A stretch of DNA of 64,000 nucleotides from a virus (lineage: Duplodnaviria > Heunggongvirae > Uroviricota > Caudoviricetes): IMG/VR virus record IMGVR_UViG_3300046779_000230, positions 23,562 to 87,561 of that record; one strand, 5' to 3'. Position numbers and translations under genes: made by a program. The stretch's first letter is position 1. The number at the start of each line of letters is the position of its first letter. Shown here piece after piece: positions 23,471 through 60,436 of the stretch. The notes under the pieces were generated by a model. That model saw nothing but the letters and a program-made list of their open reading frames with translations. It was not told where the DNA came from and ran no database searches.

Positions 23471-23679
23471 AGCGAGCGTGAAGGATAGCCAACAGCAAAG
23501 CCACTGGTGCCAATTTGGAAACTGCGAGAGGCTTTAGAACTCATTTTCTGAGTGGTGCGACGACGAGACTTTTTGGCTTTGACCACTTCAATCTGACCAC
23601 CACGAGCAAGGAATTGCTGTACAGCTTCAGATGTTTCTTCACGAACTTGTGATTTGGTTTTGTAGATAGTTGCTTGCAT
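23467..23679 (-). CDS. hypothetical small basic protein
   Basis: I moved the start to the ATG at 23679, which follows the strong RBS AAAGAGGA. The product contains FLARGGQIEVVKAKKSRRR. Confidence 0.45.
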   Translation of the reverse strand: MQATIYKTKSQVREETSEAVQQFLARGGQIEVVKAKKSRRRTTQKMSSKASRSFQIGTSGFAVGYPSRSL

Positions 23680-25131: not shown

Positions 25132-25156
25132 ATTAAAAAGGGGCATAAGCCCCTTT
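25132..25156 (-). terminator. rho-independent terminator after hsp20
   Basis: The hairpin is AAAGGGGC-UUAU-GCCCCUUU followed by UUAAU. Confidence 0.7.
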
Positions 25157-25158
25157 AA

Positions 25159-25635
25159 TTACTCTTGTAAAAGAGACTTGTCGCCTTTAGCCTTTACTGG
25201 CACTTTCTTTGGCTTAGATGCTTCTGGAATAAGACGCTCAAGAGCGATCTTAAGCATGCCATTGAAAAGTTCAGCGTCCTTGACTTCAACTTGATCGTTT
25301 AGCGCAAAAGTGCGAGTGAATGCACGTGCTGCGATACCCTTGAATAAAAAGTCTTCAGATTCGTCTGCTTTGACATTACCCTTAACAACTAGCTTACCAC
25401 CGTCAATCTCGATGTCAATCTCGTTCTGACCAAAGCCAGCAACTGCCATCTCAATGACGTAATGAGTGTCATCAACCTTACGGATGTTGTATGGAGGATA
25501 GTTTGGGATATTCTTAGTAACGTCGTCGTGCAGTTTTTGCATTTTCGAGAATTGCTCATCGAAACCGACGAAGAACTTGTCAAAGTCCTTGAACACGTCT
25601 TGACTAAAGAATGATGGAATGAATGATTTGCTCAT
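25159..25635 (-). CDS. hsp20: small heat-shock protein (Hsp20/alpha-crystallin, IbpA-like)
   Basis: YNIRKVDDTHYVIEMAVAGFGQNEIDIEIDGGKLVVKG is a typical alpha-crystallin domain. Confidence 0.9.
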   Translation of the reverse strand: MSKSFIPSFFSQDVFKDFDKFFVGFDEQFSKMQKLHDDVTKNIPNYPPYNIRKVDDTHYVIEMAVAGFGQNEIDIEIDGGKLVVKGNVKADESEDFLFKGIAARAFTRTFALNDQVEVKDAELFNGMLKIALERLIPEASKPKKVPVKAKGDKSLLQE

Positions 25636-25660
25636 ATGTTTCTCCTATTAAGCGAGGTTA

Positions 25661-25845
25661 TAAAAATTACCACCCGAAGCATGGTAGTGCTGGTTACTTT
25701 ATCCAGCGGCAATTAACGAATGCCAGTGAAATCTCTCGGACGCCATTGACCGTAGCATCAACGTTCCCAAGGTAGTGGGACAAAATAGTATGCGTTTTAA
25801 CTTATGGCGTAGGGCGCATCCCCTGCCACTTCCCATCCCTGAGAA
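25661..25845 (-). ncRNA. candidate structured RNA or leader ending in an intrinsic terminator
   Basis: This is a 210-nt non-coding gap that is visibly more GC-rich than its surroundings. Several hairpins can be drawn: CGUUGA/UCAAUG, GCUGG/CCAGC and AGGG/CCCU. A long-range pairing GGGAAGUGG/CCACUACCU is also possible. The heptamer CACUACC occurs twice. The 3' end is a UUCG-tetraloop hairpin plus AUUUUU (25661-25686). Confidence 0.35.
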
Positions 25846-26013
25846 TTATTCTGTTTGTGCAGCAGCTGCTTGTTCAGCACGCAACTGATCGATCTGTGCA
25901 TCACCTTGTTGCTTGATCTTCAAGATAAGAGCAACAACTTCATCAAATGGGTGCTTGCCCAATACGCGAAGAATAGTATTTACGTCAGATGGATTCAATT
26001 CAAGTTTAATCAT
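25846..26013 (-). CDS. hypothetical small protein (55 aa, below the track cutoff)
   Basis: The product is MIKLELNPSDVNTILRVLGKHPFDEVVALILKIKQQGDAQIDQLRAEQAAAAQTE. Its start forms an ATGA overlap with the regA stop. Confidence 0.4.
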   Translation of the reverse strand: MIKLELNPSDVNTILRVLGKHPFDEVVALILKIKQQGDAQIDQLRAEQAAAAQTE

Positions 26014-26429
26014 TTTGTTTTCTTTCCTATGTTATATTTAGCTACCAATTCCCATTGATCCTTTTCTTTGTAAGAAACGACCTTAATTTGAGACAAAGAT
26101 GCTTTTTGTTCAGACTTCTTAGTATCTAGGATCTTCAATAAATCCCAATCTTGAAGCAATGAAGCAATAGCATTTCTACGCTCTACATCACCTTGGGTAA
26201 TGTTCGATTCTTTACCGTCCAATGCAAATAGTTCTTTGAAGTGTACGATAAAGTATCTGCCTTGCTTGTGTAAGATATGGCAAGACTGATATAATTTATT
26301 CTCTTTTCTGGAAGCGATACCAATTCTGGTAAGAGTTTCGCGGACTTTTAGGAAGTTGTCTGGTTCTGGCAGACTCACCTCAAGCATGGACTCAGGAGTC
26401 CAATCGTAGTAAACCATCTCGATAGTCAT
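26010..26429 (-). CDS. regA: translational repressor RegA
   Basis: FLKVRETLTRIGIASRKENKLYQSCHILHKQGRYFIVHFKELF closely matches T4 RegA (FLKVKETLTRMGIANNKDKVLYQSCHILQKKGLYYIVHFKEML). Confidence 0.92.
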   Translation of the reverse strand: MTIEMVYYDWTPESMLEVSLPEPDNFLKVRETLTRIGIASRKENKLYQSCHILHKQGRYFIVHFKELFALDGKESNITQGDVERRNAIASLLQDWDLLKILDTKKSEQKASLSQIKVVSYKEKDQWELVAKYNIGKKTK

Positions 26430-26806
26430 TATTTTCCACCTTTATATAATTTTTCTTTTATCATAGTAAGTTGTTCATCTGAAAGGACAGTTAGTGCCTC
26501 TTTCGCCTTTTCGTCAGAGTACTTAAAGTACTCTTTAACTAAGAGCATGGATTCTGAGCTGGCATCTTTTTTAGCCCACTTACTAAATCGCTTGCGCTTA
26601 GGTATAGTATTTAGGAAAAAGAAAAACTGCCAGTCCTTATCGATGAAGCTGAGACGGTTCATCTCATTAGCATACATGACGGTGTCTGGAAAATATGATA
26701 ATCCTCGGTTTACAATATAAGGTAAGTAGTCCTTTGAAGCTGTTGGGTCTTCGAATAAATTTCTTTTGTTATCACAAATCGCATTAATAAAGTCAAAAGG
26801 TGTCAT
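26429..26806 (-). CDS. gp62: clamp-loader small subunit (T4 gp62 homolog)
   Basis: PKRKRFSKWAKK parallels T4 PRGKRYGKWAK. The gene has the expected position between gp44 and regA. Confidence 0.8.
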   Translation of the reverse strand: MTPFDFINAICDNKRNLFEDPTASKDYLPYIVNRGLSYFPDTVMYANEMNRLSFIDKDWQFFFFLNTIPKRKRFSKWAKKDASSESMLLVKEYFKYSDEKAKEALTVLSDEQLTMIKEKLYKGGK

Positions 26807-27309: not shown

Positions 27310-28263
27310 TCACTTAAATTTACAGTTAGCCATGATCTCAGTAAGAGCAGCCATGATATTCAATTCTTGATCAGCCACGAAAGCTGCCTTGTATTGATAG
27401 TCAGCCAAGATAAGAACCATCTGTGGAATGCTAGGTGGTTCCATGTAAGTAGTAGATGTATCATAAAACTGACGGAAAAGACCAGTAATATCAGCATCTG
27501 AATTCTTTGCAACCCAAGAGCGAACTTCAGTAAAGTTCTTTTCTTTCAAGAATCCAATCAGAGTCTTGTAAGATTCTTCTGACATATTGATAAGAATACC
27601 AGAATCAATCTTACCAGCCACAGAGTATTTCTGTAGTTCATTCAAGATTCGGCGATAGTCAGGAAAGTGTTTGGTAGTTAGCTCAGCAACAGACTTTGGA
27701 TCAAACTCAATACCTTCTTGCTTCAAGATTTTAGTTGCACGTTTAAAGAAAGTAGCAGCAATCTCTTGCTTGTCTTTGTTCTCAATCTTAAAATCTACGT
27801 TGGCACATCGTGAACGCAGTGGCTCAATGATTTTATTCTTGAAGTTACATGTAAAGATAAAGCGACAGTTAGCAGAGAATTCTTCCATGAAAGAACGCAG
27901 TGCTGGTTGAACAGAATCTGATGTCATGTAATCAGCTTCGTCGATAATAACAACCTTCTTGGCATCAGTCAAAGAAACAGTCGAAGCAAATGCCGTGATT
28001 GTAGTTCTAAGAGTATCAATCTTACGACCCTCGTCAGAACCGTTGATCATCAGATACTCTGCACCAATTTCATTACACAAGGCTTTAGCCACAGTTGTCT
28101 TACCAACACCAGCTGTTCCAGAAAACAAAAAGTGTGGTAGTTCACCTTGAGCAATATATTCCCTGAATGTCTTTTTCAGAGACTCTGGCAGAACACAATC
28201 ATCAATTTTCTGTGGGCGATACTTTTCAACCCACAGAAATTGTTCTTCACGGCTATCAATCAT
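27310..28263 (-). CDS. gp44: clamp-loader large subunit (T4 gp44, RFC-like AAA+)
   Basis: It contains EKYRP, the Walker A motif GTAGVGKTTVAKAL, the Walker B motif VIIDEAD and LRSRC. I chose the ATG at 28263, which follows a GGAG RBS. The track starts this ORF at 28284. Confidence 0.92.
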   Translation of the reverse strand: MIDSREEQFLWVEKYRPQKIDDCVLPESLKKTFREYIAQGELPHFLFSGTAGVGKTTVAKALCNEIGAEYLMINGSDEGRKIDTLRTTITAFASTVSLTDAKKVVIIDEADYMTSDSVQPALRSFMEEFSANCRFIFTCNFKNKIIEPLRSRCANVDFKIENKDKQEIAATFFKRATKILKQEGIEFDPKSVAELTTKHFPDYRRILNELQKYSVAGKIDSGILINMSEESYKTLIGFLKEKNFTEVRSWVAKNSDADITGLFRQFYDTSTTYMEPPSIPQMVLILADYQYKAAFVADQELNIMAALTEIMANCKFK

Positions 28264-28276
28264 TATAAAAACTCCA

Positions 28277-29734
28277 TTATTCAAATTTCAAAACATATCT
28301 ATTCTGCTCTAGCAAAGTCTTGTGATCAATCAATGCTAATTTAGAAAAGTCACTCAAGTAATTATTATACATCGACATTTGATTGGAGACAACTTTTTCT
28401 CCATGTGACTGCATAAAATTACTACTAATAGTATTCACATCAAACAAACCAAGACCATCCATAACTTGTATCCAGTTTGTTTCACTAAACATAGTCCAAT
28501 TACCAGAAAAGTACATTCTAGTTGGCATTGCACTCTTGAATGTTTCTAAGTTTTCTCTAATAAAATCTGTCTTGGTTATTTCGTTTTTCACTGTCTTCCA
28601 AAAATCACTATCTGACCGTTTTGTCATATAATGTAGTTGAACGAAATCAACAATATTATCAAATGAAGAAATAAACTCTTTATTGTAATGGTCAGAAGCC
28701 TTTCGGTTGACTACCCAATACTCAAAAGACTGAACAAACCCCATAGCTTGTAAAATAGAATTACCAATACTAGATGCTTCTAAAGGTTCAACGAACGATG
28801 CAGACAATCCAATAGAAAGACAATTATTAATCCAAAATCTATCTACTCTACCAGCTTCAAATTTAATATCTTTGGCAATATTAACTTGTTCGGTGTATAC
28901 AGATTGTACCTCATCATGTGCTTGAGATGAATTTATAAAATCATCACAGAATACATATCCATTACCATAACGACCACGTGTGGAAATTCTCCAATTCCAT
29001 CCAGAAGACAATGCTCTAGATAATGTATATGGAGATAACTGAGAGACATCATCAGTTGGGAATGCCAATGCATGATTCATTGGAAGATATTTCTTATAAG
29101 AAATCCATTTAGCTCCAAGTTTAGAAGCTAAGAATTTCTTAAATCCAGTGCTATCAATAAAGAAATCAGCATCGAATACTTCACCAGATTCAGAAACTAC
29201 AGAACCAATATCGCCATTCTCTAAGATATTTACATCTGTTAAAGTTGTCTTGACGATGTTAATATCGCGCTCTATACATTTCTTATGTAAGTATTCATTT
29301 AACTTAAATGTATTAAAATGGTATTGGAATGTTGTGTTAATTCCACCAACCATTCTAACCATATCTGTGCCAACGGTAACATCAACAAGTTGAATACCTT
29401 TGTGTATACAAGTCTTTTCTAATAAGTGGTCTTCTTGGGTTTGCCAAAAAGGTTGACCAATCGCATGAAAATAGCTTTTACCATCTCCATTCCAATTCTC
29501 AAACTTGATGCCTTTCTTCAAGGCACCATCAGTCTCGCGAACTAATTCTCGATTGTCGAGACCTACATAATCACAGAACTGAGACCAATGCTCAGTCGAT
29601 CCCTCTCCAACCCCAATAATACCAATATCTGTAGATTCGATAATGGTTATGGGGTAGAGTGGATATGCTTTACGTATAATCAAGGCAGAAATCAGACCTG
29701 CAGTCCCGCCACCTACGATTACAAATTTCTTCAT
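28277..29734 (-). CDS. flavin-dependent (tryptophan-type) halogenase
   Basis: It has VGGGTAGL (GxGxxG), IGVGEGS, LKKGIKFENW (region of the catalytic Lys) and SSGWNWRIS (WxWxI motif). Confidence 0.8.
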   Translation of the reverse strand: MKKFVIVGGGTAGLISALIIRKAYPLYPITIIESTDIGIIGVGEGSTEHWSQFCDYVGLDNRELVRETDGALKKGIKFENWNGDGKSYFHAIGQPFWQTQEDHLLEKTCIHKGIQLVDVTVGTDMVRMVGGINTTFQYHFNTFKLNEYLHKKCIERDINIVKTTLTDVNILENGDIGSVVSESGEVFDADFFIDSTGFKKFLASKLGAKWISYKKYLPMNHALAFPTDDVSQLSPYTLSRALSSGWNWRISTRGRYGNGYVFCDDFINSSQAHDEVQSVYTEQVNIAKDIKFEAGRVDRFWINNCLSIGLSASFVEPLEASSIGNSILQAMGFVQSFEYWVVNRKASDHYNKEFISSFDNIVDFVQLHYMTKRSDSDFWKTVKNEITKTDFIRENLETFKSAMPTRMYFSGNWTMFSETNWIQVMDGLGLFDVNTISSNFMQSHGEKVVSNQMSMYNNYLSDFSKLALIDHKTLLEQNRYVLKFE

Positions 29735-30394: not shown

Positions 30395-30432
30395 TATTTC
30401 TCCTAAAATATATTACTATGTATAATAGATTA

Positions 30433-30456
30433 TGCCTGAAAACCAAGTTTCAGGCA
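30433..30456 (-). terminator. hairpin terminator candidate (weak U tail)
   Basis: The hairpin is GCCUGAAA-(6 nt loop)-UUUCAGGC, 9 nt after the rubredoxin stop. It is followed by AUAAUC rather than a U run. Confidence 0.45.
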
Positions 30457-30464
30457 AATTATTT

Positions 30465-30596
30465 TCACTCCATCAGGACGTAGTCGTTCTTGGAAACACC
30501 ACATTCTGGGCAGTTGACTTCATCTGGAAGACTCAACCAATCAGCTTCTGATAATTGGTGACCACAAACGATACAAACATAAATTCGTTCAGACAT
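30465..30596 (-). CDS. rubredoxin-like small protein (43 aa, below the track cutoff)
   Basis: The product is MSERIYVCIVCGHQLSEADWLSLPDEVNCPECGVSKNDYVLME, with CxxCG and CPxCG knuckles. Its start overlaps the rubrerythrin stop (TAATG). Confidence 0.6.
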   Translation of the reverse strand: MSERIYVCIVCGHQLSEADWLSLPDEVNCPECGVSKNDYVLME

Positions 30597-42656: not shown

Positions 42657-42692
42657 ACATGGGCGTTCCTCTTGTAGTTCAAGTTATCAAGT

Positions 42693-42721
42693 ATTATACA
42701 GCAACAAGTGTGAAAAGACAA
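42693..42721 (-). promoter_or_regulatory. sigma70-type early promoter TTGTCT-17-TATAAT
   Basis: The minus strand reads TTGTCTTTTCACACTTGTTGCTGTATAAT, ending 36 nt upstream of the gp55 ATG. Confidence 0.6.
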
Positions 42722-42815
42722 ACTTTCTTTTGTAGCCAAAGCATTGCAAAATACATTTGCTTTTTTATTTGACTTGAGGCATAATTCAGGGTGTTAGGGT
42801 TGGTAAAGATATAGA

Positions 42816-60137: not shown

Positions 60138-60436
60138 TTTAGTTCCTCTAAAACTTTGGTTTCAAAAAACCATTTTTCTGTTTGTGATTTTAAATCTATT
60201 TGCCTTCTTAAGAAGGGAGTTCTATTATTTATAAGAATCCTAATAATACTCTCTTCTGGAATTTCTTCTTTATTTAGGATCTGGGATGTCGGTATAACCG
60301 TATCTCTGTAACCATATTCCTTCGCAGAAGAGTCGTAAAAAAAGTAGTCCTTGACCGTGAATCCCTCACATCCACTTAGCGGAGATCTAGGGTACTGATT
60401 TATCTCGAATAGAAATTCATTAATATATGGTGTCAT
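60134..60436 (-). CDS. hypothetical protein translationally coupled to the rSAM gene and the SBP-like gene
   Basis: The 100-aa ORF has 4-nt overlaps at both ends. Confidence 0.45.
   Translation of the reverse strand: MTPYINEFLFEINQYPRSPLSGCEGFTVKDYFFYDSSAKEYGYRDTVIPTSQILNKEEIPEESIIRILINNRTPFLRRQIDLKSQTEKWFFETKVLEELK

Follow-up and report, generated by a model that had tools for sequence, protein, structure and literature searches.

A candidate family of pseudoknot-rich phage RNA placed before a predicted ROSE-type hsp20 leader in uncultured T4-like phages

Introduction

Short ROSE-like RNA thermometers, such as that of Pseudomonas ibpA, are built from a stable hairpin I and a hairpin II in which a U(U/C)GCU motif is imperfectly paired to the Shine-Dalgarno (SD) sequence with a G opposite, while the AUG remains unpaired (Krajewski et al. 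2013, PMC3669281). In E. coli, IbpA represses its own translation via its thermometer leader (PMC10410725 and its reference 28). Here we analyze 64,000 nucleotides (nt) from a virus of the class Caudoviricetes (IMG/VR record IMGVR_UViG_3300046779_000230, positions 23,562 to 87,561), referred to as the window, and in particular a 210-nt gap on its minus strand (25636-25845), which lies between the stop codon of a 55-aa open reading frame (ORF) and the ATG of hsp20, a gene for an IbpA-like small heat shock protein (sHsp). A first-pass annotation had described this gap as G+C-rich and highly structured, and had offered two interpretations: an independent phage non-coding RNA (ncRNA) terminated before hsp20, or a riboswitch- or thermosensor-like attenuator. 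Its observations are partly confirmed by our analysis and its interpretation is partly supported. The gap appears to be a composite of independently folding units that are present or absent, and combined differently, among phages. Our best-supported statement is that the last 59 nt, start codon included, represent a phage form of the ROSE_3 thermometer leader, which accompanies the IbpA-like gene. Upstream of this leader lie a 94-nt core and an optional 5' module (together 25688-25839), which we propose as a previously undescribed, pseudoknot-rich phage RNA family.

Tandem H-type pseudoknots with A-rich third loops are known from the autoregulatory pseudoknot of T4 gene 32, from tmRNA (PK1-4) and from the upstream pseudoknot domains of plant viruses. 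The core resembles these in its tandem arrangement and A-rich third loops, and it resides in a T4-type replication-gene neighborhood, but it has no sequence relation to them, contains neither a tRNA-like domain nor a tag ORF and is not upstream of gene 32. T4 rnaC and rnaD (species 1 and 2) are structured, stable RNAs of unknown function among T4-type tRNA genes, and copies of the core occupy comparable positions in five related contigs (L107, L109, L119, L151 and L164). However, rnaC has a tRNA-like 3' part that the core lacks, and the core shows no sequence or motif similarity to rnaC or rnaD. A further comparison is with terminating riboswitches and orphan phage RNAs (glnA RNA, manA, wcaG, and PhotoRC in cyanophages). 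These are also conserved, structured intergenic phage RNAs, and downstream of them a terminator and an auxiliary metabolic or stress gene are often found. The core differs from them in having no Rfam match and no terminator/antiterminator pairing, in occurring within tRNA arrays, and in its modular, variable build.

The core RNA

Covariance model R1, which was built from cores of type A (one of four architectural types, A to D), has a single match in the window, the core RNA on the minus strand at 25688-25781 (90.1 bits, E = 8.8e-20); positions within the core are numbered on the minus-strand RNA from window position 25782. The core is composed of two H-type pseudoknots, a box-1 hairpin and the near-invariant hairpin GCUGG-A-NNNN-GUAA-CCAGC. 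The box-1 hairpin (UCCCA/UGGGA) has the loop CUACCU, and its ACCUURGG segment is nearly invariant. Helix Pb (CGU/ACG) carries a UGCU loop that pairs with GGCG, which is part of an invariant GGCGUC. The second pseudoknot, PKc, is formed by CGAG (25735-25738) and UUCG (25717-25720) around helix Pc (25721-25725 with 25707-25711); in relatives, the four nucleotides that open the Pc loop are paired to CG(A/U)(G/A). The core ends with the Pd hairpin (25688-25707, GCUGG-AUAAAGUAA-CCAGC, followed by a conserved 3' A), which is the signature of the family and occurs once in the window.

About 100 related loci from uncultured T4-like phages display strong compensatory change in this structure. When 33 type-A sequences are aligned with MAFFT, 93.9% of the cells are standard-paired, compared with 27-48% in controls with slid partners, and 10 of the 21 pairs vary on both sides, a value reached by none of 500 shuffles. 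Pair 47:64 of the pseudoknot, for example, is found as AU (14), UA (14), GC (2) and UG (2), and Pc pairs are seen as AU, GC, CG and UA. When copies that do not precede hsp20 are included in the alignment, 86.3% of the cells remain paired, with Pc and Pd at 100%. The arms of Pd vary as CCUG/CAGG, CCAG/CUGG and GCCGG/CCGGC, plus G-U pairs, and GGCA/UGCC is replaced by GACA/UGUC, GCAC/GUGC or GAUU/AAUC in relatives. Because G-U pairs are frequent, we assign the structure to the minus-strand RNA. A DNA palindrome or protein site at Pd was rejected, since the arms co-vary and use G-U pairs. The first-pass annotation had made its proposal depend on conservation and covariation in related phages, and both are present.

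It is these comparative data, and not the fold of the single sequence, that set the region apart from chance. The minimum free energy (MFE) of the gap is -59.9 kcal/mol, against -55.0 +/- 4.4 kcal/mol for shuffles (z = -1.12), and 25 of the 200 shuffles fold equally well. The description "highly structured" therefore holds for compensatory change across relatives and fails for the single sequence, which folds no better than its shuffles. The same comparison sorts the hairpins that had been drawn from the letters alone. Only GCUGG/CCAGC, the Pd stem, is a conserved helix, paired in 100% of cases and with compensatory changes. AGGG/CCCU belongs to a lineage-specific version of a conserved pseudoknot and is not a separate conserved helix. 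CGUUGA/UCAAUG is absent in relatives, which conserve CGU/ACG and the pseudoknot from its loop to GGCGUC instead. A proposed 9-position long-range pairing starts from a segment that is indeed found at 25826-25834 (GGGAAGUGG), but the pairing is not retained in relatives.

All four types share box 1, PKc/Pc, Pd, the hairpin that follows and a ribosome binding site (RBS) box, and they differ in the middle. About 40 positions of the core are invariant, many of them unpaired. An independent parse recovers the pseudoknot 5' of Pd in 96 of 118 distinct copies. Applied to 100 pattern-derived loci, R1 finds 31 full-length type-A cores at 78-110 bits, whereas the core in L107 and a truncated one in L124 score 58 bits and the other types 23-44 bits. 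We define the family by an H-type pseudoknot directly 5' of (C)GCUGG-A-N4-GUAA-CCAGC-A, in type A joined by a box-1 hairpin and the GGCGUCCG pseudoknot; all of these features are found in the window's core. Two further candidates were rejected. A promoter in the Pd loop (TAAAGT) is not conserved in types C and D. A helix between box 1 (ACCUURGG) and the RBS box, suggested by RNAalifold for types A and D, is not accepted as supported and was dropped because both partners are invariant and because box 1 persists in loci that have neither the RBS box nor hsp20 (L089, L181 and L192).

The optional 5' module starts with the GGGAUGGGAA box (25830-25839, minus strand), which 33 of the 96 unique upstream contexts contain. 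Next comes an H-type pseudoknot, PK0 (25790-25829, minus strand), which we read directly from the sequence, as the automatic parse missed it for the window lineage. Stem 1 of PK0 is GUGGC-AGGG / CCCU-(AC)-GCCAU, and its loop AUGCG pairs with CGCAU beyond the A-rich linker AAGUUAAAA. An H-type pseudoknot occupies this site in 23 of the 33 relatives that carry the box, with both stems wholly different in sequence: the stem and loop pairings include ACCGU/ACGGU with UGGCUGU/ACAGCCA, AUAGG/CCUAU with UGGUA/UACCA, and ACAAGGU/ACCUUGU with UGAGGU/ACCUCA. A TAAATA late-promoter-like motif is often found 6-10 nt 5' of the GGGAUGGGAA box, and it lies between the upstream stop codon and the element in 35 of the 96 contexts; the window does not have this motif.

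Database searches place the core outside described families. Rfam returned nothing relevant for the whole window at gathering score, nor for 25500-26000 and 25615-25700 at E <= 10. Rfam 15 contains no match to the core, whether in the window or among 21 related loci carrying the core or the pseudoknot and Pd, and no relevant known aptamer class was found in this set. Rfam tRNA and tmRNA models match neighboring genes in related contigs, but never the core. The core was not found in 50,697 records of cultured phages; when the gap, a type-C element and a compact module were compared with cultured phages by blastn, only the RBS box was recovered, in Synechococcus phage ACG-2014f. Full-text literature searches found no description of such an element; the paper on Methylophilales phage Melnitz reports a different RNA, a glutamine riboswitch beside the phage tmRNA.

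The hsp20 leader

The leader (25633-25691, minus strand, 59 nt) consists of hairpin I, a spacer, hairpin II and the AUG (25633-25635). Hairpin I (25668-25686, UACCA-UG-C(UUCG)G-G-UGGUA) is the element that the first-pass annotation had taken for a terminator. Hairpin II (25642-25656, CUC-G-CU / UAAU / AGGAG) masks the SD sequence at 25642-25646 and leaves a G bulged; it is present in the MFE fold of the whole gap.

Two sets of loci were compared. The hsp20 protein of the window retrieved 80 IMG/VR loci, which we call the window clade, and the Hsp20 of Synechococcus phage ACG-2014f retrieved a second set of 80 loci from another phage group. In most window-clade loci the gap before hsp20 is conserved, with 75-98% identity over RNA positions 64-210, often matching that of the gene itself, and each locus has exactly one copy of a 14-nt box, UCGCUUAAWAGGAG. 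In the second set the order from 5' to 3' is the regA stop codon, a canonical terminator, a TATAAT-like or TAAATA hexamer, a hairpin, a short spacer, the anti-SD motif, AGGAG and AUG. The hairpin of this set has the apical motif GAUGC(C)-loop-GGGUC, and it is followed by (A)CU(C/U)GCU and, after 4-6 nt, by AGGAG. Of 46 leaders from the other phage group, 42 have the apical YGC(C)-loop-GGG motif seen in hairpin I of the window. The UYGCU motif occurs in 117 of 142 unique hsp20 leaders (UCGCU in 100, UUGCU in 17), and the isolated segment folds into an SD-masking mini-hairpin in 110 of 128 leaders, with the G unpaired in 104 and the AUG unpaired.

The connection to ROSE_3 (RF02523) is made by relatives of the window leader. 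Rfam matches ROSE_3 in the correct place and strand in L254 (37.7 bits, E = 5e-5), L258 (30.7 bits), L221, L223 and L267 (29.4 bits) and, more weakly, in L269 and L230. The alignment covers GGAUGCC...GGGUCC with the bulged G, ACUCGCU, AGGAG and even AUGACU, and hairpin I aligns to hairpin I of ROSE_3, bulged G included. Model R2, for which 22 leaders of the second set were the sole source, has its one significant match in the 64 kb at the window leader, 25633-25691 (32.8 bits, E = 7.7e-8), and it recognizes 76 of the 80 window-clade loci, with 78 matches at E < 0.01. The link from the window to ROSE_3 is thus indirect, because it runs through R2. A weak R2 match at 60196-60250 on the minus strand (10.2 bits, E = 1.6), in which CUCCCUUCUUAAGAAGG replaces the anti-SD/SD hairpin, is probably due to chance. 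The suggestion of a thermosensor-like element in front of the heat shock gene is borne out to the extent that 25633-25691 belongs to a leader family whose other members match ROSE_3 (E = 5e-5 to 7e-3).

By its features, the leader corresponds to the described thermometers. It lies directly 5' of an IbpA/Hsp20 gene (Pfam HSP20, E = 1.9e-17) and ends at its ATG, a stable hairpin I precedes hairpin II, the AUG is free, and a U(U/C)GCU motif faces the SD sequence with a bulged G. It does not reach the gathering score of the curated Rfam model. With ROSE_3 the leader family shares the position within an IbpA-type gene's 5' untranslated region (UTR), the two hairpins, GAUGCC...GGGUC with its bulged G, ACUCGCU facing AGGAG, and the free AUG. 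In contrast to ROSE_3, hairpin II of the phages lacks two apical base pairs of the consensus (about -2.5 kcal/mol), and hairpin I of the window clade has a U-run 3' of it and, in place of a sigma-32 promoter, another RNA 5' of it. Furthermore, ROSE_3 is known from gamma-proteobacteria, while the window-type leaders are found in phages and their thermosensing is only predicted. The E. coli ibpA leader is similar in that a multi-hairpin, SD-masking 5' UTR precedes an IbpA-family sHsp gene, but it contains a longer ROSE element, and RNA binding by the phage Hsp20 is only a conjecture. The self-repression by E. coli IbpA nevertheless suggests that the phage leader could serve as an aggregation sensor, instead of or beside a thermometer. 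We take the leader to be a phage variety of ROSE and the core to be a new RNA family.

Two other features touch the leader. The conserved RBS box (CUCGCUUAAU / UUGCUUUUAA / CGCUCUUAC; in the window, 25642-25658) also resembles the NusB/NusE boxA (CGCUCUUA / UGCUCUUUA), as does the leader of L280/L281 (ACUCGCUCUUACGGAG), and in the rrn arrangement a hairpin likewise precedes boxA; we judge this resemblance to be weaker than the ROSE match. In about 15 window-clade loci, a 74-aa ORF separates the 14-nt box from hsp20. ORFs of this kind (72-75 aa, MLNNINTAIDSFQGIKTKFVETYVKNEELKKPL...FDAKKAF) stand between the ROSE-like leader and hsp20 in many relatives (L015-L019, L031, L057-L064, L086, where it is downstream of 9553, L091, L095, L098, L113, L121 and others). 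Where such an ORF is present, it would be the gene controlled by the leader, and hsp20 comes after it with a simple SD of its own. No Pfam family matches the ORF, which by eye looks phasin-like.

Hairpin I as a probable terminator

Hairpin I is directly followed by a U-run (25662-25666, minus strand), and a terminator scan recognizes the two together (25688->25669), with six hairpin pairs and the tail AAUUUUUAUA. The G+C-rich hairpin and U-tract expected of an intrinsic terminator are both present, in agreement with the first-pass annotation, and the scan finds no promoter-like site between the UUCG hairpin and the RBS. A hairpin stands at this site in 87 of 88 distinct relatives, with arms wholly different between loci. 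Its U-run is more variable: at least four U within 9 nt are found in 58 of the 87, at least five U in 8 nt in 49, and 49 to 71 of the 87 qualify by various criteria. We regard hairpin I and the U-run as probably a leaky intrinsic terminator.

The second set shows how this arrangement may have come about. There, a promoter-like hexamer stands 5' of the homologous hairpin (39 hexamers in 41 leaders), and the hairpin lacks a U-run. The position of that hexamer is taken by Pd in 92 of 116 window-clade sequences, and a promoter-like hexamer is found in only 5 of the 116. It appears that hairpin I was co-opted as a leaky terminator in the window clade, where hsp20 would be expressed by read-through.

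The first-pass annotation had further proposed an attenuator, in which alternative pairing of a duplicated heptamer, CACUACC, decides between termination and read-through into hsp20. The heptamer does occur twice (25771-25777 and 25683-25689). Complementarity of the hairpin arms to the upstream RNA of the same locus was measured in 83 relatives, with arms permuted among sequences as the control. The mean longest complementarity to the own core is 5.27 for the 5' arm (5.29 when permuted) and 5.61 for the 3' arm (5.73 when permuted). At least six pairs between the 3' arm and the box-1 region are found in 30 sequences, against 30.2 +/- 2.3 with permuted arms. Among these relatives there is no co-varying alternative pairing between hairpin and core, CACUACC included, and an antiterminator built on this heptamer or on any other co-varying segment was rejected, as there is no excess over permuted arms.

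Genomic contexts of the core

An exact-pattern scan of IMG/VR for Pd (CGCTGGANNNNGTAACCAGC) returned at least 120 loci. Among the matches listed, about 66 have hsp20 downstream, either directly or after the 74-aa ORF (16 with deviating RBS boxes, e.g., UUGCUUUUAAGGAG), about 40 retain pseudoknot and Pd away from hsp20, and about a dozen are chance- or coding-like. A bacterial origin of the core was considered and rejected: GTDB pattern hits among the matches listed (at least 120) lack the pseudoknot and are coding- or chance-like.

The copies away from hsp20 fall into several contexts. Full type-A cores are found inside tRNA arrays in L109 (4434-4549), L119 (12410-12523), L151 (2608-2722), L164 (2345-2460) and L107 (1921-2053). 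The core begins 1-3 nt past the CCA of tRNA-Asp(GUC) in L109, L119 and L164; L151 has an extra insert of about 40 nt, and L107 has the core 3 nt past a different tRNA. Downstream of the core, L109, L119 and L151 have a long hairpin (about 16 bp) and after it another tRNA. A tRNA-like sequence lies 3-15 nt 3' of Pd in L099, L158, L164 and L183, as judged by eye and not called by ARAGORN. Other copies follow regA in loci without hsp20 and keep box 1 (L089, L181 and L192), and others again are found 14-70 nt 5' of genes for a fatty-acid desaturase (L128 and L134, with a truncated homologous ORF in L093), rubrerythrin, a GDSL lipase, an LpxH-like metallophosphoesterase and a malonyl-CoA-decarboxylase-like protein. 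Finally, a compact form of about 45 nt consists of an H-type pseudoknot and Pd (e.g., AUCG-A-CCAC-AA-CGAU-AGA-GUGG-C-GCUGG...CCAGC-A). It starts at or near the stop codon of pstS (five contigs) or of a glycosyltransferase gene (three contigs) and is followed by a canonical terminator, with different genes downstream. The proposal of an independent phage ncRNA fits the 94-nt core, since it folds autonomously and its family, sometimes reduced to the pseudoknot and Pd, also occurs without hsp20.

We note several details of these contigs. The compact form is carried by L110 (4767-4786), L130, L134, L136, L142, L147, L159, L166, L194 and L198; no clear terminator hairpin follows it in L147, and L097 and L198 have a separate promoter-like site after the terminator. 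Contigs with the core in tRNA arrays carry many tRNAs, and in L119 and L151 the interior of the long hairpin repeats a GGGGAUGG motif that resembles the GGGAUGGGAA box. A "domain A" beside the core in tRNA arrays, which was considered as a novel RNA, is simply tRNA-Asp(GUC). Permuted two-piece tmRNA genes (Rfam tmRNA_permuted / beta_tmRNA and ARAGORN) are present in the core-carrying contigs L110 (1858-2225), L119 (10381-10779), L124 (3101-3506) and L151 (693-1177), and L109 has a weak, sub-threshold YrlA-like match at 2107-2211. ARAGORN found neither tRNA nor tmRNA in the window itself.

Interpretation and alternatives

We consider it reasonably probable that an autonomous new phage RNA has been placed before a ROSE-like hsp20 thermometer, whose hairpin I doubles as a leaky terminator. 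An autonomous RNA is favored over a sensor for hsp20 because the core is found between tRNAs, has its own TAAATA motif in 35 of 96 contexts, is backed by a terminator-like hairpin, persists without hsp20, and forms no co-varying alternative pairing.

Several observations weigh against this reading. All of the ROSE_3 matches in relatives (22.7-37.7 bits, E = 5e-5 to 7e-3) are under the gathering score of 43, and the window leader is unmatched by Rfam ROSE_3 even at E <= 10 in a search with 86 nt. Hairpin II is very weak (-2.5 to -4 kcal/mol), and its computed melting is flat, with a mean unpaired probability of the SD of 0.4-0.6 over 4-50 C in partition-function folding. It is also nearly invariant, so that covariation cannot test it and is confined to neighboring pairs, for example AGAC...GUCU. 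In about a third of the relatives the U-run is poor or missing, and several show no such run at all. About 60% of the structured copies among the matches listed precede hsp20, which could mean a role in cis rather than synteny. Finally, the hsp20 genes of the window clade seemingly have no promoter of their own, and the core is therefore physically part of the hsp20 5' UTR.

The last two points lead to the alternative that survives best, although we regard it as unlikely: the core would be a riboswitch-like sensor acting in cis, which governs hsp20 and other stress or lipid genes through read-through at the next hairpin or through RBS access. The complex pseudoknotted fold with its many invariant unpaired nucleotides would suit a sensor. 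A hairpin, often with a U-run, almost always follows within 1-5 nt, or else an ORF starts 14-70 nt away, and no promoter lies between core and hsp20 in the window clade. The downstream genes also lean to stress and membrane functions, with hsp20 after about 60% of the structured copies, and desaturase, rubrerythrin, GDSL lipase, LpxH-like phosphoesterase and malonyl-CoA-decarboxylase-like genes after others. However, no antiterminator or anti-SD pairing co-varies among the relatives compared, and the arms match their own core no better than permuted arms do; core and hairpin form separate, non-overlapping helices. The architecture varies strongly, from types A-D to the 45-nt compact form, unlike a single ligand pocket, and no Rfam riboswitch family matches. 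The contexts also speak against a sensor: copies lie between two tRNAs inside tRNA arrays, or at 3' ends where a terminator and, after it, a separate promoter come next (L097 and L198), and box 1 is retained where both hsp20 and the RBS box are missing (L089, L181 and L192).

Slightly more doubtful is the possibility that the core serves RNA processing, as a self-cleaving ribozyme or as a substrate of RNase P, Z or E; upstream transcript and downstream unit would thereby be separated, and the hsp20 mRNA would receive its 5' end at hairpin I. Small ribozymes are common beside phage tRNAs. Pd and its 3' A end 1-5 nt before hairpin I, where the other phage group has its promoter and transcription start, and the core adjoins tRNAs on either side (1-3 nt past the CCA of tRNA-Asp, 3 nt past a tRNA in L107, and with tRNA-like sequence 3-15 nt past Pd in four contigs) and is found at many gene boundaries. 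A processing role would explain both why Pd ends at the transcription start of the ROSE leaders of other phages and why the core abuts tRNAs. On the other hand, no Rfam ribozyme family matches, and by inspection the strand order, two tandem H-type pseudoknots and a hairpin, misfits the hepatitis delta virus (HDV)-like, hammerhead, twister and pistol topologies; cleavage is conjectural.

We give still less credence to the idea that the pseudoknots are a 3'-UTR or boundary module of the regA-orf55 unit, which stabilizes or insulates transcripts together with the terminator and has no specific relation to hsp20. The compact form, at or near an upstream stop codon and before a canonical terminator (pstS in five contigs, glycosyltransferase in three), is what such a module would look like. 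Moreover, regA or orf55 is the usual neighbor upstream in hsp20 contexts, and the module persists in the three loci without hsp20 (L089, L181 and L192). But a separate start is implied by the TAAATA motif, which in 35 of 96 contexts comes after the upstream stop codon and before the element; a generic stabilizer needs neither some 40 invariant nucleotides nor three pseudoknots, and the copies between tRNAs are not in 3' UTRs.

That nothing functional is encoded, the gap holding only chance hairpins or a hidden small gene, is extremely improbable: the single-sequence fold is not significant (z = -1.12) and short ORFs are present (45 aa at 25699-25836 on the minus strand, 50 aa at 25623-25775 on the plus strand), but this is contradicted by the comparative data, in which the element is 75-98% identical across loci whose hsp20 proteins are about 70-80% identical, relatives differ by 1-2-nt indels and compensatory substitutions instead of codon-like patterns, the reading frames are broken by these indels, and the covariance models return E-values of 8.8e-20 (R1) and 7.7e-8 (R2).

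The surrounding locus

The gap belongs to a minus-strand series of genes in the order gp44, gp62, regA, orf55, gap, hsp20 and terminator. The clamp loader gene gp44 is located at 27310-28284, gp62 at 26429-26806 and regA at 26010-26429 (Pfam Translat_reg PF01818, E = 1.3e-46). The 55-aa ORF, orf55 (25846-26013), has no Pfam family, and its stop codon UAA (25846-25848) borders the element; it is retained 5' of the element in many related loci. The hsp20 gene itself (25159-25635, minus strand; Pfam HSP20 PF00011, E = 1.9e-17) is followed by its own terminator at 25137-25156, according to the terminator scan. The sole part that resembles cultured phages is regA, with 67-70% identity to Pelagibacter phage HTVC008M, Methylophilales phage Melnitz and cyanomyoviruses, and we therefore assign the window to an uncultured aquatic T4-like myophage.

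The G+C content of the gap (0.467; core 0.495) is above that of its flanks, as described earlier (whole window 0.394, hsp20 0.421, regA and orf55 0.384). The gap is not the largest gene-free one: when minus-strand ORFs of at least 50 aa are considered, the stretch at 1252-1586 (335 nt) is longer, and others lie at 30395-30595 (201 nt) and 42657-42815 (159 nt). None of these three has an Rfam match at gathering score. Adjoining the clamp-loader genes, a minus-strand gene at 28277-29734 encodes a 485-aa protein of the FAD-dependent tryptophan-halogenase family (Pfam Trp_halogenase, E = 8e-99) and looks like an auxiliary metabolic gene.

Proposed mechanism and implications

What the comparisons show is how the element is conserved and paired, how its families are related and in which genomic contexts they lie. 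Termination, read-through, thermosensing and any function of the core are steps that we infer from sequence comparison, and the scheme that we favor, with an autonomous RNA in front of a ROSE-like leader, would operate as follows. Transcription would enter from upstream, in the window probably from the regA-orf55 unit and in many relatives from the TAAATA late-promoter-like site 5' of the element. Hairpin I and the U-run would stop part of the transcripts and release a stable, structured RNA of about 190 nt. Transcripts that read through would carry hsp20 with its SD masked by the weak hairpin II (CUC-G-CU / AGGAG, with the bulged G). On warming, hairpin II would open and allow more translation; alternatively, the sHsp itself may hold it shut, as E. 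coli IbpA does. The core would be an autonomous RNA, either a stable ncRNA or a structural domain, possibly bound by protein or processed, and not a ligand-sensing attenuator of hsp20.

A bolder version of this proposal is plausible, although we stop just short of calling it probable. The core and the 5' pseudoknot module would constitute a new functional class of phage RNA in uncultured aquatic T4-like phages, namely a stable trans-acting RNA, a component of a ribonucleoprotein or a processing ribozyme, which, depending on the genome, is excised from tRNA arrays or parked before hsp20. Separately, the hsp20 leader would be the first ROSE-type thermometer family to be described in phages.

If the leader works as predicted, T4-like phages of aquatic bacteria would carry a ROSE-type post-transcriptional switch together with hsp20, and the phage chaperone would be made on a temperature or aggregation cue and not simply by the infection clock. 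An apparent terminator before a gene can, in such cases, be the first hairpin of a thermometer. The core is a multi-pseudoknot RNA that is common in viral metagenome contigs and absent from Rfam 15 and, chance-like ones among the matches listed aside, from bacterial genomes. Its positions in tRNA arrays, at gene boundaries and before stress and lipid genes suggest a general, undescribed function at the RNA level in these phages.

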